A DNA stretch of 64,000 bases from an uncultured delta proteobacterium (lineage in GTDB: Bacteria > Desulfobacterota > WTBG01 > CAIYCZ01), in NCBI GenBank assembly GCA_963803975.1, contig CAWDOY010000054.1, positions 32,001 to 96,000 on the forward strand. The letters run 5' to 3'. The notes below the pieces were generated by a model. The model had not been told where the DNA came from and searched no databases. It saw nothing but the letters and a program-made list of their open reading frames with translations. The translations under genes and the position numbers were made by a program. The first letter of the stretch is position 1; the number at the start of each line of letters is the position of its first letter. Below are positions 25,393 to 36,127 of the stretch, one piece after another.

Positions 25393-25485
25393 AGCCCCGG
25401 ATAAATGAAACGCGCGAAGGTTAAGAGACCGCGAACCCGATATTTAATCAACAGATTCGATAGAACTAGACTCTTTACGACAGTA

Positions 25486-26598
25486 ATGGCATCAGCTCAT
25501 CTGGATTCTATTTTACAAAAGGCGGTAAGCGGGAAACGTCTTTCCCGTGATGAAGGCCTTGCCCTGCTCAAGTCTTCAGAACTGCTTTCCCTGGGCAAGG
25601 CAGCGCACGCAATGAAACTGCAGAAGACCGGGCAGCAGGTTTTCTTTAATGTAAACTGCCATATCAATCTCACCAATATCTGCGTGTCACGCTGTAAATT
25701 CTGCGCGTTCAGCTGCGGCAAGGAGGATGCGCGCGCCTACACCATGACGGTAGAGGATGTGATGGAGCGGGCCCGCGCGGCACTTCCCGCCGGCATAACA
25801 GAGTTTCATATCGTGAGCGGCCTGCATCCTGACCTGCCGTTCAGCTATTACGCGGATGTCATCAAAACACTTAAAACCGCTTTTCCTGACATTCATATCC
25901 AGGCATTCACCGCGGTTGAGATAAAATACTTTTCTGATATTTCCGGGCTGTCAGTGGAAGAGGTGCTCACGCAGCTTAAAACCGCGGGCCTCGGGTCCAT
26001 GCCCGGCGGCGGTGCTGAAGTGTTGAGCACGCGCATACGCGATGAACTCTGCCCGAAGAAAGCCTCGGCAGATGAATGGCTGCAGGTGATGAAATGCGCC
26101 CACGGGCTCGGGCTCAAGTCAAATGCCACTATGCTCTATGGTCATATAGAAACCGATGAAGAGAGTGATTGATCATCTGCTGAAACTGCGGAGAACTGCA
26201 GGATGAGACCGGCAGGATTTCAGTCGTTTATCCCTTTGCCGTTTCACCCCGGAAACACCGAGCTATCCTATATGCAAAAGCCGCGGGCCTATGAAGAGCT
26301 GAAACTGTACGCTGTGTCGCGGCTGATGCTCGATAACTTCACACACATCAAGGCATTCTGGATCATGGTGGGGCTGCCGGTTGCCCAGCTGGCGCTGAAG
26401 TTCGGCGTTGATGACCTGGACGGAACGGTCGCTGAAGAGAAAATAACTCATGCAGCGGGAGCCCAGACCGCGACCGCCATTGCCAAAGATGACCTCATGC
26501 GCATGATCCGTGAATCGGGCAACATTCCTGTGGAGCGCGATACGCTGTATAAGGTGATAAAAATTTATAGCGATGAAGCGGTCAGCTTTCAGCATTAA
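25486..26598 (+). CDS. mqnE: Aminofutalosine synthase (radical SAM); frameshifted at about 26165-26200
   Basis: CVSRCKFC, HIVSGLHP, AFTAVEI, PGGGAE, NATMLYGHIE, HIKAFW, DGTVAEEKITHAAG. Confidence 0.9.
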
Positions 26599-27476: not shown

Positions 27477-28543
27477 GTCAATTAGGAGCTATTTATAAAA
27501 AGACGCACCGCCGGCAGCGGATTACTGATGAAGATGCGCGGCAGCTGTTCAAAGAGGCCGACCTCCTGACACTCGGGCAGTGCGCCCAGCAGGGTGCTGC
27601 TTTTTTTCATCCAGACCCGCTGGTAACATTTATCATTGACCGCAATATCAATTACACGAACGTCTGCACCAGCAGGTGCCGGTTCTGTGCCTTCTACCGG
27701 GATGAGTCAAGCCCGGAGGCATACCTGTTAAGCCATGAGGAAATTATAGCAAAGGCAGCAGAAGCTGTTTCCCGCGGTGCCACCCAGATTATGCTGCAGG
27801 GCGGGCTGCATCCCTCTTTGTCCCTGGACTATATTGTGGGGCTGGTGCGGAAAATAAAAGAGCGCTTCAGCGTTACTGTCCATTCATTTTCTCCTCCGGA
27901 GATTATGCATTTCGCGCAACGCTCCGGGCTGCACGTTGAGGCTGTTTTAAAATGTCTCCGCGAGGCCGGTCTTGACTCGCTGCCCGGCGGCGGCGCGGAA
28001 ATTCTTTCTGACCGGGTGCGCAGCATGGTGAGCCCCTGCAAGATAAAGTCCGCAGAGTGGCTTAGCGTCATGGAAACAGCGCATGCCATGGGGATGAAAA
28101 CAACCGCTACCATGATGATCGGCAGCGTTGAAACCTGCGAGGAACGCATAGAGCACCTGCGCCGCATACGTGACCTGCAGGATAAAACCGGCGGGTTCAG
28201 GGCCTTTATTCCCTGGAGCTTTAAAACCGCGCACACCGAACTGGGCGGCGGGGAAATATCAGCCCTCGACTATCTCAGGACCCTTGCCATTTCCCGCATC
28301 TATCTTGATACCATTGAGAACATCCAGGGCTCCTGGGTAACCCAGGGCCCGGATATTGGTCAGATAACGCTCTCTTTTGGGGCCAATGACCTGGGAAGTA
28401 TTATGCTTGAGGAAAATGTGGTGCGGGCTGCGGGCGCTTCCTACAGCCTTACGGAAGAAGAGATGGTCAGCCTGATTTGCACGGCAGAAAAAATTCCTGC
28501 ACAGAGAAATACCGAATATAAAATTATTAAGCGCTACCCATGA
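27473..28543 (+). CDS. mqnC: Cyclic dehypoxanthine futalosine synthase (radical SAM)
   Basis: IDRNINYTNVC..CRFCAFYR, LQGGLHP, QGSWVTQG, GSIMLEENVV. Confidence 0.93.
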   Translation: MSQLGAIYKKTHRRQRITDEDARQLFKEADLLTLGQCAQQGAAFFHPDPLVTFIIDRNINYTNVCTSRCRFCAFYRDESSPEAYLLSHEEIIAKAAEAVSRGATQIMLQGGLHPSLSLDYIVGLVRKIKERFSVTVHSFSPPEIMHFAQRSGLHVEAVLKCLREAGLDSLPGGGAEILSDRVRSMVSPCKIKSAEWLSVMETAHAMGMKTTATMMIGSVETCEERIEHLRRIRDLQDKTGGFRAFIPWSFKTAHTELGGGEISALDYLRTLAISRIYLDTIENIQGSWVTQGPDIGQITLSFGANDLGSIMLEENVVRAAGASYSLTEEEMVSLICTAEKIPAQRNTEYKIIKRYP

Positions 28544-28563
28544 GCAACAACAGGGCACGGAAC

Positions 28564-29139
28564 TTAGTTTAATTCAAACCGCATGCTCATGGTTACCGGG
28601 AAGTCAGGATTTCCGATCGGCAGAATAAAGCCGGTTACCAGTATTGCCTGCGCTGCAACTATCCCCTGTATACCGCCGCCGCTGAACGGCATTGCCGGTA
28701 TCTCTCTGCTGGCGCTGACGGTATCAGAGCTGTATGAGTAGTTTACAAAAAACGAGTTGGCAATTTTTTGTGTGAGGTTTTCGTCGCTGGCAAAGAGCAG
28801 ATGGTCGATGAGACCAATAAATCCGGTCGTAGCAAAAACAAGCTCTGCCCCGTCGCCGATAGAATCAGTGACAGCAGCAGAAAATTTAAACGTAGGATTG
28901 ACCGGGTTTCCGTCCTGATCTGTTTTAGTGACGAGCCCAAACATATGCACCACCGCCGTGTGCACCTGTCCCCAGTCCAGATCATAGGCAATGGTTTTGC
29001 TGTGTCCCGGGGTCAGGACAATATAGTGGACATTCGTCAGATCAAGGTTGTCTGCAGCTGTGGCAGGGGGGCCGCACAGCAGCGCAAGAGCGAATATGAT
29101 AGTTATAATGACACGTTTTGTTATTATGATATTCTTCAT
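28564..29139 (-). CDS. Hypothetical exported protein
   Basis: AGGAG RBS and a signal peptide ending ATA-A; no recognised domain. Confidence 0.7.
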   Translation of the reverse strand: MKNIIITKRVIITIIFALALLCGPPATAADNLDLTNVHYIVLTPGHSKTIAYDLDWGQVHTAVVHMFGLVTKTDQDGNPVNPTFKFSAAVTDSIGDGAELVFATTGFIGLIDHLLFASDENLTQKIANSFFVNYSYSSDTVSASREIPAMPFSGGGIQGIVAAQAILVTGFILPIGNPDFPVTMSMRFELN

Positions 29140-29390
29140 AGCAGAGCTCCTTTATTAAACAGGGGATGTACGCAGTTGTAAATTATGTATTTTTTTAAGT
29201 TTTAAAATTATTTCTTAATATGTCAACAAGAAACACTACTGGATGGAGAAATAATATTGGCATTAAATTTCGGCTATCCCCCGTACCAGAGAATACTTTA
29301 CCATAATAACTGACGAATCTATTAAAAGTTTCTTTGAATCTTATATTTTAAACCACGCAATTTTCAGACCCGCACGCACGGAGAGGTACT

Positions 29391-29984
29391 ATGTCTCGAA
29401 TTCTTGGCATATGTGGCAGCGCACGAAAAAACGGCAACACGGCAACCCTGCTGCGGGCGGTACTGGATGCAGCAGGGATTGAAAGCGAGCTTATTTTTCT
29501 TTCAGATCTTGCCATCGGTTTTTGTACCGGATGCCTGAGCTGCGTAAAACATAAGGGAGTGTGCGTAAAAAAGGATGATATGCCGGGGCTCCTGGAAAAA
29601 ATGCTTGCCGCGCAGGCGCTGGTGCTCGGCTCGCCAAACTATTATTATGATGTGTCCGGCCTGATGAAGAATATGATTGACCGCAGCATTGCTTCAAGCT
29701 ACCGGGGCATCGGAGAATATACGGGCATGGCATGGCACGGCTGGCAGCCGTTTACTGGCAAGGCGGGCGGCATGGTTCTGTGCCAGGCTGCATTCGGCGC
29801 GGAGAAGGCGCTTGAGACCTTTAAATGTTTTGCCGAGTATTCCGGGCTGAATCTGATCGGCGAAGTGATTGCCTCGACGGGCAATCAGCCGGTAAGCGAG
29901 TTCCCCGAATATATCGAGGCGGCGCAGAAGCTGGGGGCGTTGATCAGAGAAGCAGTTGTGCGCACCCGCTGCCAAACGGAGTGA
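29391..29984 (+). CDS. Iron-sulfur flavoprotein / NADPH-dependent FMN reductase family
   Basis: GSARKNGNT, CTGCLSC.....C, GSPNYY, MKNMIDR. Confidence 0.9.
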   Translation: MSRILGICGSARKNGNTATLLRAVLDAAGIESELIFLSDLAIGFCTGCLSCVKHKGVCVKKDDMPGLLEKMLAAQALVLGSPNYYYDVSGLMKNMIDRSIASSYRGIGEYTGMAWHGWQPFTGKAGGMVLCQAAFGAEKALETFKCFAEYSGLNLIGEVIASTGNQPVSEFPEYIEAAQKLGALIREAVVRTRCQTE

Positions 29985-30038
29985 ACTCATCGCATCGCCT
30001 GCCGTCAGGCACGCCCGAGCGTTATTCATTATGCCTGC

Positions 30039-30440
30039 TCACGCAGAGTCCCCGGGTTTGGCGTCGAGGGGCTCAACATGGATGTGTACGCTGTCCACCC
30101 TGGTGAAGTTTTTTTTGATCCGCCGGGAGATATTTTTTGAGAGCTTTTCAATCCGCTCACTTCCGTAGTTTCCCTTCAGCCCGCAGTGCAGAAATACTGA
30201 TACCTTTTCCCCCTGGCGGTAAATTTTTATGTCATGGCAGTTAAGCTTATCCGGGGCTTTATTGATCATCTCATCCAGCCTGCCGATCAGGTCTGCACTC
30301 TGCCCGGTGACGTCCTGAGCAACAATATGCCGCTGCCTGGCGGTTTCAAACGTAACATTCACGTCTTGCACATCCGGCAGCTGCTGCTGAATCAGTGCGG
30401 TTATTTCATGTGACAGCTCATGAGACTGCTCAAGGCTCAA
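30039..30440 (-). pseudogene. C-terminal fragment of a cation diffusion facilitator (tandem ZT_dimer-like domains), 5' part missing
   Basis: MSLEQSHELSHEI...DVNVTFE and HDIKIYR...VFLH...VHIHVEP; no transmembrane domain upstream. Confidence 0.72.
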
Positions 30441-30751
30441 ATGGCATCCAGTCCCTTCTTTCCCTGTGAAATTTTATACGGTACATCCGATCTGTCAGTT
30501 CTTCACGGCCATACAACTGCTCAAATACTTTTCTTGACTCTTTTCTCTTCCTGGTGTTTACTTTCATTAGTGGCTCGTTTCTGTTTTAAGGTGTCCGTGG
30601 ATTTATGCCACGGGAGAGCCACTACCTAAAATTTCAACTAAAAATAATATATCAGCTCCCTAAAGTGTAGATGCGTACAATGGCTGACTATTCCAATCAA
30701 GCATGAACCGCATAATCGTAATTTGGCAGAGATCTGTTATCTAAAATAATT

Positions 30752-30817
30752 AGGCTTGCTTGGAACAGGCCGTCTCTTAAGAGAGGAGCCGGGCTTTTAT
30801 CCGGGCAGCGGAATACT
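30752..30817 (+). ncRNA. Putative NiCo (czcD) metal-sensing riboswitch aptamer
   Basis: GAACAGGCCG-[TCTC TTAA GAGA]-GGAGCCGGGC-...-GCAGCGG resembles the NiCo core as recalled (GANCAGGC..GAGCCGGGC..GCAACAG). It overlaps a terminator and precedes a cation ATPase. Confidence 0.65.
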
Positions 30818-30849
30818 CGCGGGACAAAGCATCCTGCGGGTATTTTTTT
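30812..30849 (+). terminator. Leader terminator (attenuator) upstream of the P-type ATPase
   Basis: AATACTCGCGGGA-loop-TCCTGCGGGTATT plus a T-run, about 15 nt before the ATG. Confidence 0.75.
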
Positions 30850-30864
30850 ATGTAAGGGGTCGTA

Positions 30865-33450
30865 ATGTCTGATAAATTTGATTTGAACAACATTAGTGGT
30901 GTCACTGGTCTTTCCGAAAAAGAAGCCTCCGACAGACTTGCGCGTGAGGGGTTTAACGAAATCCCCTCGGCTAAAAAGCGCAGTATTATATCGTTTGCGC
31001 TGAGTGTTCTTCGTGAACCAATGTTATTGCTTCTTATCGCCAGCGGCATAATCTACATGATACTGGGAGATATCCAGGAAGCCTTTATGCTTCTTGGTTT
31101 CGTCTTCGTGATTATAGGTATAACCCTATATCAGGAGCGCAAAACAGAGAGGGCGCTTGAGGCACTTCGCGACCTGTCAAGTCCACGTGCTTTGGTTATC
31201 CGAGACGGTGTATCCAGGAGAATCGCCGGCCGCGAGGTAGTCCGTGGCGATATCATCGTTCTTTCAGAAGGTGACAGGGTTCCGGCAGATGGTATTGTAC
31301 TTGACTGCAATAATCTAATGATTGAGGAATCGCTACTTACCGGAGAATCAGTCCCGGTGCATAAAACCGAAGCAGAAGAGTCCACAGAGATGGGACGTCC
31401 CGGCGGAGATAATTCACCTTTCATATATTCTGGTACTTTGGTGGTTGGAGGAGTAGGCATCGCAAAGGTAGCAGCTACAGGCATATATACCGAATTCGGC
31501 AAGATAGGCAAGTCTTTGCAGGCCATAGAGTCTGAAGAGACGCTACTCCAAAAAGAGACAAGACGCGTAGTACGCAATTTAGCTCTAATAGGTTTGGTAC
31601 TTTGTGTAATTATGGCGTTGGTCTACGGAATTACTAAAGGTGATTGGCTTGCTGGCTTTTTGGCGAGTATTACTCTGGCAATGGCCATTTTACCGGAGGA
31701 ATTCCCTGTTGTGCTCACCGTTTTCCTTGCCCTAGGCGCGTGGCGGATTTCTCAGAGCCATGTACTGACACGCCGTATGCCCGCCATCGAAACTCTTGGT
31801 TCAAATACGGTCTTATGTGTAGATAAAACAGGGACTCTTACCATGAACCAAATGTCAGTAGATAGAATATCCGTTGGTGGAGAATTCTTAAATGTAGACT
31901 TGAACACAGCAAAGGAGCCGCCAGAAATATTTCATCAACTGATCGAATTCAGCATATTGGCTGGCCAGACTAATCCCTTCGACCCGATGGAAAAGGCTCT
32001 CAAGAAACTGGGTGAGCATTTTCAGAACCTGACTGAACACCTGCATGGAGATTGGAAGTTCATGCGCGAATACCCATTGTCAAAGAAACTTATGGCTCTT
32101 TCTCGTGTCTGGAAATCGCCCAACAGTGAAGACTATATTATCGCGGCTAAAGGTGCTCCTGAAGCTATTGTTGACCTCTGCCATTTGAGCGAGGCTGAAA
32201 CACTAGAATTATCAAAACAGGTTGAACTTATGGCCGGTGATGGGTTAAGGGTGCTTGGCGTAGCCAAAGCGAATTTTAAACAAGTCTCACTTCCTGGTGA
32301 CCAGCACGACTTCAAGTTTGATTTTCTTGGTCTTTTAGGATTTGCTGACCCGATACGTCCTACGGTTCCGGCGGCTATCCAGGAATGTTATAAAGCGGGT
32401 ATCCGGGTAGTAATGATTACGGGTGACTATCCGGTTACCGCACAACATATTGCGCGTCAGGTAGGTCTGAAACCATTGGACGAGGTTATCACCGGCGCCG
32501 AATTGTACAACATGAGTGATGAAGAACTTAGAGAGCGTATCAAGACCGTAAATATATTCGCACGGGTAGTCCCAGAACAGAAACTTCGTCTGGTGAATGC
32601 TTTTAAGGAAAATGGCGAGATTGTATCAATGACCGGGGATGGGGTAAACGATGCGCCGGCATTGAAATCAGCAAACATCGGGATTGCTATGGGCGGAAGA
32701 GGTACCGATGTCGCCAGAGAGGCAGCAGCACTGGTATTGCTGGACGATGATTTTTCCTCCATTGTCAAAGCTATCCGGCTTGGCAGACGCATATTCGATA
32801 ACCTGAGAAAAGCTATGGCTTATATATTAGCGGTCCATGTGCCCATTGCTGGCCTATCACTAATACCGGTGTTGTTTGGATGGCCTCTAGTGCTGCTGCC
32901 GGTTCATGTGGTATTCCTTGAACTAATTATTGACCCAGCATGTTCAGTAGCGTTTGAAGCTGAGCCCGAAGAACCTAATGTTATGAACCGTCCACCGCGC
33001 AATCGTAAAGAACCACTCTTTAGTCGCAGAACTATAATCTTGAGCCTAATGCAAGGCGTTGCAGTTCTACTCGTTACGCTGGCCATTTACGGATTTACTT
33101 TGAATCAAGGGCGAGGTGAGATAGAGGCACGCAGTTTAGCTTTCACTACCCTGGTGATCGCAAATTTGGGGCTTATACTCTCTAATCGTTTCTGGTCAAA
33201 GAACGTATTAGCGAGTCTGCGTTATAAAAATACGGCATTATTTATAATAATAGCGGCCACTTTAGCTATCCTGACTCTGGTGATTTATGCGCCTTTCCTA
33301 CGCGAGTTGTTCCACTTTGGTATATTGCATCCCAATGACCTGGCGCTTTGTTTTGGAGCTGGGATTGTTTGTATTTTGTGGTTTGAAGCAGTCAAATATT
33401 TTAGCAGGCCGATTTTTTTTCAACCTAAAAAAACAGCATTAGAAAGTTGA
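30865..33450 (+). CDS. Cation-translocating P-type ATPase (P2-like, PEEFP in TM4)
   Basis: TGES, PEEFP, DKTGTLT, KGAPE, MITGD, TGDGVNDAPAL. Confidence 0.95.
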   Translation: MSDKFDLNNISGVTGLSEKEASDRLAREGFNEIPSAKKRSIISFALSVLREPMLLLLIASGIIYMILGDIQEAFMLLGFVFVIIGITLYQERKTERALEALRDLSSPRALVIRDGVSRRIAGREVVRGDIIVLSEGDRVPADGIVLDCNNLMIEESLLTGESVPVHKTEAEESTEMGRPGGDNSPFIYSGTLVVGGVGIAKVAATGIYTEFGKIGKSLQAIESEETLLQKETRRVVRNLALIGLVLCVIMALVYGITKGDWLAGFLASITLAMAILPEEFPVVLTVFLALGAWRISQSHVLTRRMPAIETLGSNTVLCVDKTGTLTMNQMSVDRISVGGEFLNVDLNTAKEPPEIFHQLIEFSILAGQTNPFDPMEKALKKLGEHFQNLTEHLHGDWKFMREYPLSKKLMALSRVWKSPNSEDYIIAAKGAPEAIVDLCHLSEAETLELSKQVELMAGDGLRVLGVAKANFKQVSLPGDQHDFKFDFLGLLGFADPIRPTVPAAIQECYKAGIRVVMITGDYPVTAQHIARQVGLKPLDEVITGAELYNMSDEELRERIKTVNIFARVVPEQKLRLVNAFKENGEIVSMTGDGVNDAPALKSANIGIAMGGRGTDVAREAAALVLLDDDFSSIVKAIRLGRRIFDNLRKAMAYILAVHVPIAGLSLIPVLFGWPLVLLPVHVVFLELIIDPACSVAFEAEPEEPNVMNRPPRNRKEPLFSRRTIILSLMQGVAVLLVTLAIYGFTLNQGRGEIEARSLAFTTLVIANLGLILSNRFWSKNVLASLRYKNTALFIIIAATLAILTLVIYAPFLRELFHFGILHPNDLALCFGAGIVCILWFEAVKYFSRPIFFQPKKTALES

Positions 33451-33632
33451 TTAATAATGCCGCTTTGTCCTTTCCGAGCTGCTGTTTTCAGTCCGGACAG
33501 ACTTTTTTTTATAAAAAATTATTCTGTCCGGCTGTTGATTTAATATTTTTTTTATTGAGTAACACGATAAGGAATGCCTCATAGGGAGCGCCTGTGGTAT
33601 AGTGGCAGCACAACAGTTCAGGAGGAAACCCC

Positions 33633-33731
33633 ATGCGCGAATTCATAAAGCCCCAGAGAAATCAGCTGTCGATGCTGCAAACCGTAAATCTTAATTCCAT
33701 AGCACTGCCGGTGATCAGTAATTTTTTATAA
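33633..33731 (+). pseudogene. Truncated ORF resembling an IS1182-type transposase N-terminus
   Basis: AGGAGG RBS; MREFIKPQRNQLSMLQTVNLNSIA runs into the end of the convergent gene. Family assignment is by recall only. Confidence 0.35.
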
Positions 33732-34362
33732 ACGAGACATTCCTGCTGCTGAAAAGATAGACCGGGTATTTAATGCCTTCCAGCAGGTAGCAGCTGATAC
33801 CCATATCACTCTGCCACCAGTTGGATTCATTAAAAAAGTTGTTCGCGGCACCCATGGCCTCGACGCGGATGCCGGTTCCGGTAAACACTTTCTGGAAGGC
33901 ATACAGGGCGCGCCGGGTATGGTGGGCATCGGTTACGATGATGAGATGTTTAAAATGATTCTTTGTGCAGTACTCCCGCAGGTCATAGGCCTCGTCAAAC
34001 GTGGAGGTCACCCCTCCCGGTTTCAGGGACGGAAGATACACCGGCGATGCAGTGGCATGCAGGGCCTCGATGATTGACGGAGCAATCTGCCATTCATCTC
34101 CGCACACGTGCCGTAAAGCGGGATAATTCTGGCGCTGCTCAGTGAAAATAAGGCGCGGCGCATACCCCTGCTGATACAACTCAATCGCGCGCGGCAGGCG
34201 CGTCAGGATGCCCCCGGCGAGCACCACCAGAGCATCTGCTCCCCTGGTTCCGGTATTGACGGTAAAAAACTGCGCATAGCGGGTGAGCAGGAACGCGTGC
34301 TGAGATATCGCCCCCGTTATAACGAGGGCAAAAAGGGCGCATATGAGGAGAAGCTTTTTCAC
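33715..34362 (-). CDS. YdcF/DUF218 family protein
   Basis: DALVVLAGG..RLPRAIELY, STFDEA, IIVTDAHHTRRA; start codon uncertain. Confidence 0.85.
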   Translation of the reverse strand: MKKLLLICALFALVITGAISQHAFLLTRYAQFFTVNTGTRGADALVVLAGGILTRLPRAIELYQQGYAPRLIFTEQRQNYPALRHVCGDEWQIAPSIIEALHATASPVYLPSLKPGGVTSTFDEAYDLREYCTKNHFKHLIIVTDAHHTRRALYAFQKVFTGTGIRVEAMGAANNFFNESNWWQSDMGISCYLLEGIKYPVYLFSSRNVSFIKNY

Positions 34363-34608
34363 GATGGACCCCGCATCGGCACGTATGCAATGCAGTCGTG
34401 ATGATACCGCACGAAGAAGAGCACCCGTCAGCATAAAAACGCTGGCAGGAACTCCCCGGGATATTAAAAAACCCCTCTTGGCGGTATTGCAGAAGGGTTT
34501 CCCTGATGCCGGTTACAAAGTGAGTTTCCCGCACCAGTTATTTAAACATGGTATTATAAAGCTTCCCGCCTGCACGGCGGGGTTAGCGAGGCATGCAACC
34601 GGTCAGGG

Positions 34609-35058
34609 TCAATGAATCGTATCTTTGGGCTGCAGGGATTCAAATATTTCATCCACTTCATCAATCATCTTATCTGCAAGGCCGCGGCTGACCAGGATGG
34701 GTGCCTTCTGGCGTATCGCCACCGCGATGGCATCACTCGGCCGGGAATCGATCGCAGCCTCTTTGCCGTCATAGGCGAGGCTGATGATTGCATAAAAGGT
34801 GTTTTGCTTGAGGTCTGTTATGACCACCCGCGTTACCGTGGCATGCAATCCCTGAATAATATTGCCGATCAGATCATGGGTCATGGGACGCGGCGTCCAG
34901 CTCTCTTCAAGCCCCAGGGCGATGGCGTTTCCTTCAAAGTGTCCAACCCATATGAGCAGTATGCGCCCGGTTTCTTTGTCCTGTAACACCACCTTGTATT
35001 GCCCGGATTGCATATCAGGGGAAACGCGCTTTACCACCACTTCGATGAGATCATTCAT
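34609..35058 (-). CDS. Bifunctional nuclease family protein (DUF151)
   Basis: IWVGHFEGNAI, PRPMTHDL, IDSRPSDAIAVA. Confidence 0.92.
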   Translation of the reverse strand: MNDLIEVVVKRVSPDMQSGQYKVVLQDKETGRILLIWVGHFEGNAIALGLEESWTPRPMTHDLIGNIIQGLHATVTRVVITDLKQNTFYAIISLAYDGKEAAIDSRPSDAIAVAIRQKAPILVSRGLADKMIDEVDEIFESLQPKDTIH

Positions 35059-35096
35059 ACCGCTATATTGTCACCTGCATGCCAGCGTCAACTGTT

Positions 35097-35927
35097 TTAG
35101 TGTTGATAGCTTGTCTTCGAATCATTGATAGTATCAACAAAAATTTTCACCATGCTCGGATCAAACTGGCTTCCTGCAGCTTTTCTAATCTCGCGCAAAG
35201 AATCATCCACTGACAGTGCCCTCCTGAAGGACAGGTCAGAGCGAAGGTAATCATAGGTGTCGGCAACGGCAATGATGCGGGCGTTTAAATCAATGGTGTC
35301 GCCGGCAATACCATCAGGATAGCCCTTGCCATCAAAGCGCTCATGGCATTGTCTGATACTGGCTGCAAGCGGCTGGAGGAATTCTATTTTGCCGACTATT
35401 TTCTCTCCAATCTCGGGATGCTTCTTAATCAGGAAATATTCCTGGTCGGTAAGCCGCCCCGGCTTCCCGAGGATGTTTTCGCTGATGCCGATTTTGCCTA
35501 CATCGTGCAGGAGTGAGGCAAGCCGCAGATCGCGCAGCTCAGATTCGCTCAGTTCCATCTGGACACCAACCTTACAGGACAAATCGGCGACCCGTGAAGA
35601 ATGGCCTGAGGAGATGATGTCCCGTTCATCCAGCGCCTTCATGAGCGCTTCAATGGTTGTCATGTACTGGCTGAGCAGGCGATTGTAGGCATTGGTGATT
35701 TCTTCCAGAGTGAGCTGCGGTTGCACGCTTTTTTCTTCAACAACAAAGCCCAGGTCCTGCAGATCAATCCTGCGGACCCGGTGATGGCCTCCGGGTGTCT
35801 TTAGTGCCTTGAGCTTGCCGGAATAGATGTAATTCTTGATCGTCTGGGTAGTTACCTTGATGAGATTGGCAGCCTCCCGGGTGTTTAGTACTTCCTTGCT
35901 TGCCATTTCTTTTATTCTTTTGACCAT
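35097..35927 (-). CDS. Excisionase/MerR-like HTH fused to an HD-GYP domain
   Basis: LNTREAANLIKVTTQTIKNY...KTPGGHHR, then GHSSRV, LHDVGKI, HPEIG, HERFDGKGYP, IIAVAD. Confidence 0.9.
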   Translation of the reverse strand: MVKRIKEMASKEVLNTREAANLIKVTTQTIKNYIYSGKLKALKTPGGHHRVRRIDLQDLGFVVEEKSVQPQLTLEEITNAYNRLLSQYMTTIEALMKALDERDIISSGHSSRVADLSCKVGVQMELSESELRDLRLASLLHDVGKIGISENILGKPGRLTDQEYFLIKKHPEIGEKIVGKIEFLQPLAASIRQCHERFDGKGYPDGIAGDTIDLNARIIAVADTYDYLRSDLSFRRALSVDDSLREIRKAAGSQFDPSMVKIFVDTINDSKTSYQH

Positions 35928-36127
35928 AATTCACCCCCTTTTCTTCAATACATTAAATAGCAGAATTCAAAAAAAAATTACCCTTGACTTTTTCCCTTCT
36001 TGGGGAAATCATGTTATTTATCCGTTTTTATATCATTGTACCAACCTTTTTCAGTTTTGCAAGTAAAATCTTTCTAAATACATAAAAATTTTTATAAAAA
36101 TAAAACAGAATGCCCCGCTGTTCTACA

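Follow-up and report, generated by a model that had tools for sequence, protein, structure and literature searches.

The DNA considered here, referred to as the window, is a stretch of 64,000 nucleotides (nt) from an uncultured delta proteobacterium (assembly GCA_963803975.1, contig CAWDOY010000054.1, positions 32,001 to 96,000 of the forward strand). Near its middle lies a compact unit: a promoter-like site, an RNA leader resembling the NiCo/czcD riboswitches (Rfam family RF02683), an intrinsic terminator and the gene for a P-type ATPase of the P2 fold, with the motif PEEFP in its fourth transmembrane helix (TM4). Fragments of mobile elements flank the unit, which occupies most of what was a host gene for a cation diffusion facilitator (CDF) exporter. 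Coordinates are collected in Table 1.

Table 1. Features of the riboswitch-ATPase locus, in window coordinates (ORF, open reading frame; IS, insertion sequence)
Feature	Position	Strand	Basis or remark
3' remnant of host CDF exporter, last 133 of ~478 codons (ZT_dimer part)	30039-30442	-	Pfam ZT_dimer, E 8.5e-15
Mobile-element end fragment, multi-copy, with truncated 45-codon ORF (30433-30567)	30443-30653	-	
Acquired cassette: promoter, riboswitch and ATPase, ending inside the ATPase tail	30680-33410	+	DNA identity; GC content at third codon positions (GC3)
Putative sigma-70-type promoter-like site	30723-30750	+	10/12 consensus match
NiCo/czcD aptamer, four-way junction	30757-30831	+	RF02683 and independent covariance model
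P1	30757-63/30825-31	+	6/7 pairs; G.A mismatch 30762/30826
A9-equivalent	30764	+	
P2	30768-90	+	
J2/3 (GGG)	30791-93	+	
P3	30793-806	+	short
A	30807	+	
P4	30808-20	+	short
J4/1 (GGG)	30821-23	+	
Intrinsic terminator	30810-30849	+	stem 30810-30846, 15 pairs, 7-nt loop; U-tract 30843-30849; hairpin -19.4 kcal/mol
P2-fold P-type ATPase, 861 amino acids (aa)	30865-33450	+	PEEFP at residues 277-281; last ~12 codons not donor-derived
Probable right end of an IS; abuts the cassette and cuts it short	33410-33531	-	89% match to G001:C341:516-637
Ribosome-binding site and first ~25 codons of a truncated ORF, possibly a transposase start	33615-33711	+	ends at right junction
DUF218 gene, right edge of insert	33715-34434	-	Pfam PF02698; synteny in G001, G002, G003

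The leader is almost certainly a compact member of the known NiCo/czcD class; the RNA class itself is not new. RF02683 matches 30751-30829 over the full model (1-96) with 29.9 bits, at an E-value of 7.5e-5 in a 401-nt search and 1.9e-4 across the whole 4.25-Mb genome. An independent covariance model, R1, was made from 17 relatives upstream of CDF genes (16) or of an MgtA-like gene (1), with the leaders of PEEFP pumps excluded to avoid circularity; it gives the leader 43.4 bits (E 2.2e-11) as its sole match in the 64 kb. Genome-wide, under a rough calibration, R1 scores the leader at E 1.4e-9 and the next match at E 0.1, and it finds no second NiCo element in the host genome. A second genomic RF02683 match (E 0.5) sits within a coding region and was rejected. 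In an alignment of the 17 relatives, whose structure was taken from the Rfam consensus and whose sequences are mutually related, covariation backs the four-way junction P1-P4: 88.6% of cells are paired and 11 of 16 pairs change on both sides, a result equalled by none of 500 shuffles on four of five measures, and slid alignments reach 24-47% pairing. The bare sequence motif is not significant, with four matches in the window against 1.7 expected. When folding was compared with shuffles, the terminator segment stood out (z = -4.9, 0/200 equally stable); the 5' part of the aptamer alone gave z = -1.7.

The Rfam score speaks against this assignment: 29.9 bits falls short of the 37-bit gathering threshold, and a scan at that level returns no match anywhere in the window. 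Many clear NiCo relatives likewise fall below the cut-off, and the low score here plausibly reflects the shortness of P2, P3 and P4. The first-pass annotation of this DNA had named the class and an ON-switch layout, and had placed aptamer, terminator and ATPase start where they are indeed found; the Rfam search it proposed gives a full-length match with a small E-value, but one below the cut-off.

The anatomy agrees with that of the class. In structure 4RUM the ion-binding nucleotides are A9, G40, G41, G42, G82 and G83 (bioRxiv 10.1101/2025.08.02.668262). All six are kept in the window, at 30764, 30791-93 and 30822-23, as are the junction bases A12, A56 and G81, at 30767, 30807 and 30821; these assignments were mapped by position through the Rfam alignment. 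In the terminator, J4/1 and the 3' strand of P4 make up the 5' arm, and the 3' strand of P1 forms the loop. Aptamer and terminator thus compete for the same strands and are mutually exclusive, as expected of an ON switch; the same overlap follows related aptamers. In one of these (L041), before a CDF gene, the post-aptamer terminator region stands in three tandem copies, possibly an assembly artefact.

According to PMC9389577, czcD riboswitches bind Fe(II), Co(II) and Ni(II) with affinities of ~1 uM, their carriers are anaerobes, and Fe(II) is argued to be the ligand in vivo; PMC11672702 calls their ligand selectivity unsettled. From what is known of the class, when free Fe(II), Co(II) or Ni(II) is low, the P4 3' strand and J4/1 would pair into the terminator, ending transcription ~15 nt upstream of the start codon; with metal in the micromolar range, closure of the G-rich four-way junction would sequester the P4 3'/J4/1 strand and allow the pump to be made.

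The strongest alternative supposes that the switch has decayed in this strain: the aptamer would be caught in a competing helix, the terminator would form with or without metal, and leak alone would yield the pump. This is a serious contender, though the less probable one, and it is compatible with either view of the pump's cargo. At first pass the P1 pairing had been called weak, which is half right: six of seven pairs form, and the G.A mismatch, private to this allele, remains. In an alignment fitted to the model, all but one of 22 distinct pump-linked aptamers have a pair at the column of 30826. In the nascent window aptamer the 5' strand of P1 prefers to form a competing helix with the 3' strand of P3, and P1 has a pair probability of ~0, against 0.8-0.95 in the donor-type aptamers L014 and L035 and ~0.5 in L055; the penalty for closing P1, 6.5 kcal/mol, is the largest among 36 natural aptamers (median 0). 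The promoter has drifted: donor loci carry a perfect -35, a TAAAAT-type -10 and an 18-nt spacer, whereas the window has one -35 change and an altered -10 region. In L062, a sister strain that shares the insertion, P1 is paired and a pocket G is changed; a core base is altered in three donor-clade alleles too. These features count against a working switch, and the early worry about a variant or decaying aptamer was well placed. In the single RNA run no contig lies over the leader.

Decay has its own difficulties. The pocket nucleotides are all intact, and NiCo examples above the cut-off include P1 stems of only 2-4 contiguous pairs, a short P1 being common there. In a 99%-identical strain (run X9) 30826 carries the pairing base, so the mismatch appears to be a recent polymorphism; run X4 keeps the window's base. 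The pump, moreover, is under purifying selection (below). By full-length equilibrium energies, in which a few rows were mis-anchored, the window looks no different from canonical examples; the nascent-aptamer test was used instead. Nearest-neighbour energies ignore metal and G.A pairs, and what they suggest is relaxed selection or a bias towards OFF rather than loss. It seems reasonably likely that the window allele still switches usefully, and it is probably biased to OFF or in need of more metal than the donor's.

The pump carries the hallmarks of the P-type ATPase superfamily (DKTGT, TGES, GDGVND and the A, N, P and M domains), and it falls below the cut-off of every NCBIfam equivalog that it matches. 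The best of these is the PMR1 type, at 525 bits against the 798 required for a P2A Ca2+-ATPase; His replaces the TM5 Asn and Glu the TM6 Asn of that group, and the TM4 Glu and TM6 Asp of the P2A Ca site are kept. The P1B models, P1B4 included, give 232 against 346 bits; PEEFP is not an xPC-type motif, and the C-terminal helices are of P2 type. For MgtA (P3B) the figures are 340 against 611 bits, and the TM motifs are unlike those of the MgtA-like gene in L180. The nearest solved relatives, LMCA1 and SPCA1, are ~30% identical, and an AlphaFold model of the pump (pLDDT 81) superposes on SPCA1 with a TM-score of 0.82. Aligned with LMCA1, E278 and D690 are the retained Ca-site carboxylates; H658 stands at N688, E686 at N716 and N767 at R795, and TM4 offers an extra E279 and M273. 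Residues E278, E279, H658, H681, E686 and D690 are present in 120/120 close homologs; in a set of 29 diverse members reaching down to 39% identity, D690 is the only one of them that varies. The ordinary P2A pumps of host relatives have PEALP and the two Asn residues, in TM5 and TM6.

These residues place the pump in an unstudied P2-fold PEEFP subfamily whose membrane site conserves Met, Glu and His, outside both the canonical Ca-ATPases and the P1B pumps. The PEEFP motif was not found in the searchable literature, although gene-association tables or supplements on the riboswitch class may already list such hosts or this pump type. Literature searches for FUPA30 and for the czcD motif with COG0474 returned nothing, and an Atlas search with the pump gave generic ATPase clusters only. 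By coordination chemistry a His/Met/Glu site would suit a softer divalent ion.

Gene context bears on the cargo as well. RF02683 matches occur in 16/151 Dehalococcoidales genomes (6 above cut-off) and in 6/42 genomes of the host class (4 above cut-off), where the five others all lie upstream of CDFs. The first-pass annotation had remarked on a NiCo element outside Firmicutes; the host is indeed delta-proteobacterial, but these counts show that such occurrences are not rare. By the translations, the 21 Chloroflexota matches precede 12 CDFs, 8 PEEFP pumps and 1 MgtA-like pump. In Clostridia (24 matches, 21/150 scored genomes) the targets are 15 CDFs, 7 PEEFP-type pumps, 2 ABC genes and no P1B pump; among those seven pumps, one of them from the seed genome, the TM4 motif is seen in five and is partial in two. 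In 151 Dehalococcoidales genomes, related and so not independent counts, NiCo stands directly upstream of 11 of 12 PEEFP pumps, and the twelfth is cut at its 5' end. Among the matches listed, the literature holds nothing on the class in a Chloroflexi or Dehalococcoid context. In a more distant Dehalococcoidales PEEFP lineage (L188, L190, L191; 60-63%), NiCo is more compact still, its P2 being very short. At L050/L180 a NiCo match of 31.3 bits lies upstream of an MgtA-like ATPase that has PG, not PE, in TM4.

On balance, therefore, site chemistry and gene context tilt us toward a pump that exports Fe, Co or Ni, and toward an NiCo/czcD ON riboswitch that controls a transition-metal-exporting P-type ATPase; both claims are held with moderate confidence. 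The protein would combine the fold of a Ca pump with a Met/Glu/Glu/His/Glu ion site and would export a divalent transition metal, most likely Fe(II) given that the organism lives in anoxic sediment; the first-pass annotation had likewise thought of metals such as Fe2+.

The main rival to Fe/Co/Ni export accepts a genuine NiCo switch and gives the pump a compensatory role: it would move Mg2+, Ca2+, Mn2+ or H+/Na+ to offset metal stress. The fold and best matches are those of Ca/Mn pumps, the site is rich in carboxylates, and the L050 locus places a true MgtA-like gene under NiCo; PMC9389577 itself raises compensation and suggests it for the 'MgtA-like' Ccel_1038. Several observations pull away from metal export. 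NiCo is missing from most members of the subfamily: upstream of the PEEFP pumps of the host phylum it was found at 0/20 loci (20/400 genomes), where the upstream regions gave one unrelated c-di-GMP-I match and one 16.8-bit match inside a gene; none of the 57-70% homologs from other phyla has it, nor do four metagenome loci at 77-78% within the donor clade (L064-L067). Metal control is thus not a trait of the whole subfamily. A His of the H681 type also occurs in some ordinary P2A pumps, and Xu and Cotruvo (PMC9389577) caution that which way a P-type ATPase transports, and with what selectivity, is difficult to foresee. Yet the Ca-site asparagines are swapped for His and Glu throughout the subfamily, the TM4-TM6 motifs are unlike those of L050, and under the same RNA the PEEFP pump alternates with CDF exporters in two phyla. 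Compensatory transport is accordingly the unlikelier account, though one to be taken seriously.

That chance resemblance or an assembly chimera explains the leader is very improbable and is already refuted: the Rfam score under the gathering threshold and donor-like DNA inside a metagenome-assembled genome might invite the idea, but the independent model gives E 2e-11, the same element lies upstream of pump orthologs, the junctions are spanned by the independent contigs L058, L057 and L062, and the stretch recurs in runs of 13 studies.

What the first-pass annotation overlooked is that the unit is a horizontally acquired cassette that took the place of the greater part of a CDF gene in the host. 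From ~30680-30717 to ~33412 the DNA is 88-92% identical to loci of Chloroflexota/Dehalococcoidia type; since the identity spans ~30680 to 33410, promoter, switch and gene moved together. The closest relatives of the pump are from Chloroflexota/Dehalococcoidales, at 94, 88, 82 and 79% (the 94% match being a Chloroflexota MAG protein), and the 40 nearest genomes of the host order and class offer only P2A homologs of 34-39%. GC3 is 0.43 in the ATPase against 0.58-0.64 in eight neighbouring frames. The pump protein nests in a Dehalococcoidia clade with full support in a tree that left out 4 outgroup rows and 2 loci lacking the full protein; an approximately unbiased (AU) test on 17 rows rejects grouping the five Dehalococcoidia rows without it (p-AU 2.7e-6). 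Contig L058 is 99.2% identical over 28365-32355, L057 is 98.6% identical over 31788-35946, and the left junction is shared by L062; since these independent contigs together span both junctions, a chimera is excluded. The stretch is found mostly in freshwater-sediment metagenomes (20 runs, 13 studies). Those TrmD homologs of the host that carry names (56-74%) come mostly from Deltaproteobacteria/Desulfobacterota or from Proteobacteria not further specified, which places the host loosely. As read from identity, composition and tree, the promoter-switch-pump unit was transferred from Dehalococcoidia into the delta-proteobacterial host. In the closest donor-type genome (G041, locus L014) the cassette lies between two upstream tRNA genes and a downstream tRNA-like fragment, and a P2A ATPase adjoins it on the opposite strand.

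The landing site can be reconstructed from relatives. An intact CDF gene directly follows DUF218 in G001 (same genus, 478 aa) and in G003 (472 aa) and G002 (475 aa), of the same family; the best NCBIfam equivalog of this host-lineage CDF is FieF, at 187 bits against a cut-off of 420. In the window an insert of 3.3 kb (30443-33706) replaces the first ~345 codons, including the transmembrane part, and leaves 133; in L062 a further 270 nt of the remnant are lost. The uninserted form persists in relatives, as a contig without the insert in run X9 and an intact CDF start in run X20. CDFs of the host family (472-478 aa) have three tandem ZT_dimer domains (L109:468-1904, L120, L121).

Both outer junctions of the insert show 5-nt microhomology. 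The left fragment (30443-30653) matches C3:123512-123722 of the same genome at 88%, with a further 43-nt match on C51, and its terminus recurs at five places in G003, four of them at contig ends; it has no match in viral contigs, and the 45-codon ORF has none in Pfam. On the right, the ORF beside the G001 sequence resembling 33410-33531 is an IS1380 transposase (E 7e-16). The truncated ORF at the right junction has no Pfam or plasmid match; a related start and a continuation occur as loose contig ends. The starts of the two truncated flanking ORFs may resemble those of IS256 and IS1182, a likeness that does not establish a family.

As an event in the DNA the replacement of a FieF-like CDF is established; its adaptive meaning is a matter of interpretation. 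IS activity and microhomology deletions would have removed the 5' part of the CDF gene, and the pump would now probably cover part of the deleted exporter's job. Against this stands the one other CDF that the host keeps: the loss may have required no compensation, and the cassette may have landed there by chance. The pump has been maintained: between host-lineage strains synonymous changes prevail (9 synonymous and 1 nonsynonymous against L062; 3 and 2 against L058; dN/dS 0.18 against L057), which indicates purifying selection. Over residues 327-455 several of the substitutions that L057 carries relative to the window match donor residues, hinting at a recombined patch. The host genome (G000) also has a second, ordinary P2A ATPase (PEALP; C7:25018-29854), split in two frames near 25490 and lying three genes from its only intact CDF.

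The widest proposal that these data prompt is a tentative one, doubtful enough to be put as a suggestion: the PEEFP/His pumps of anaerobes may form a P2-fold class of exporters, so far unrecognised, for Fe(II) (Co/Ni). In Clostridia and Dehalococcoidia they would be exchangeable with CDFs as targets of NiCo, and here one would have been selected to take over, across phyla, from a FieF-like CDF. If true, transition-metal export extends beyond the P1B ATPases. PMC9389577 and PMC11672702 state as open both the in vivo ligand of czcD riboswitches and the cargo of their non-P1B ATPases; the locus offers a candidate, a conserved P2-fold His/Met/Glu pump tied to NiCo in two phyla and standing in place of a deleted FieF-like CDF. 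Natural alleles of the riboswitch, with P1 paired, with P1 mismatched or with a pocket G changed, are supplied by near-identical strains. In sediment anaerobes much of the NiCo class escapes the Rfam cut-off. The interest of the locus, then, lies in the pump subfamily rather than in the RNA.

Two neighbouring regions of the window deserve record. At 25405-26598 (+) an MqnE-like radical SAM (S-adenosylmethionine) gene of a futalosine cluster is divided between two ORFs, of 255 aa and 131 aa, a split that suggests a frameshift or an error in sequencing; downstream of it are mqnA-like and mqnC genes. At 35097-35927 (-) an excisionase/BldC-type helix-turn-helix is fused to an HD-GYP-like domain, an arrangement kept in family relatives.

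Among related known systems is LMO3448, a czcD-controlled Listeria ATPase that rescues iron toxicity in Bacillus subtilis (PMC9389577) and for which Fe(II) efflux is proposed, as it is here. The first-pass annotation had invoked this Listeria precedent, soundly as to czcD control; LMO3448, however, is a P1B4 pump and belongs to another subfamily than the window pump, with its P2 fold, ten-helix-type membrane domain and PEEFP. Ccel_1038 of Clostridium cellulolyticum, described in the same source as 'MgtA-like P3-type', is likewise a non-P1B ATPase under a czcD riboswitch with substrate and direction open. It may belong to the PEEFP subfamily, since every NiCo-linked ATPase in the Clostridia sample was of PEEFP type; PMC9389577 is the only source for it in the searchable literature. 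The MgtA of Streptococcus pneumoniae, under a yybP-ykoY riboswitch (PMC11672702), is a precedent for joining a metal riboswitch to a P2A-like pump, the switch in the window being NiCo instead. LMCA1 (Listeria lmo0841) and SPCA1 share the fold and the DKTGT, TGES and GDGVND motifs, but they carry PEAL/PEGL in TM4 where the window pump has PEEFP, with His, Glu and Asn at LMCA1 N688, N716 and R795. FieF-type CDF exporters are the closest of the NCBIfam equivalogs to the deleted host gene, and CDFs are the commonest NiCo targets; the host CDF differs in its three ZT_dimer domains, its sub-cut-off score and its lack of a NiCo leader, being operonic after DUF218. From the NiCo/czcD family itself (RF02683, 4RUM) the window copy departs in its compact P2, P3 and P4, its P1 mismatch, its strong competing helix, and its delta-proteobacterial host with a Chloroflexota donor; it shares the four-way junction, the A and six G positions of the pocket, the ON logic with a terminator laid over P4, J4/1 and P1, a cation transporter downstream and an anaerobic habitat.

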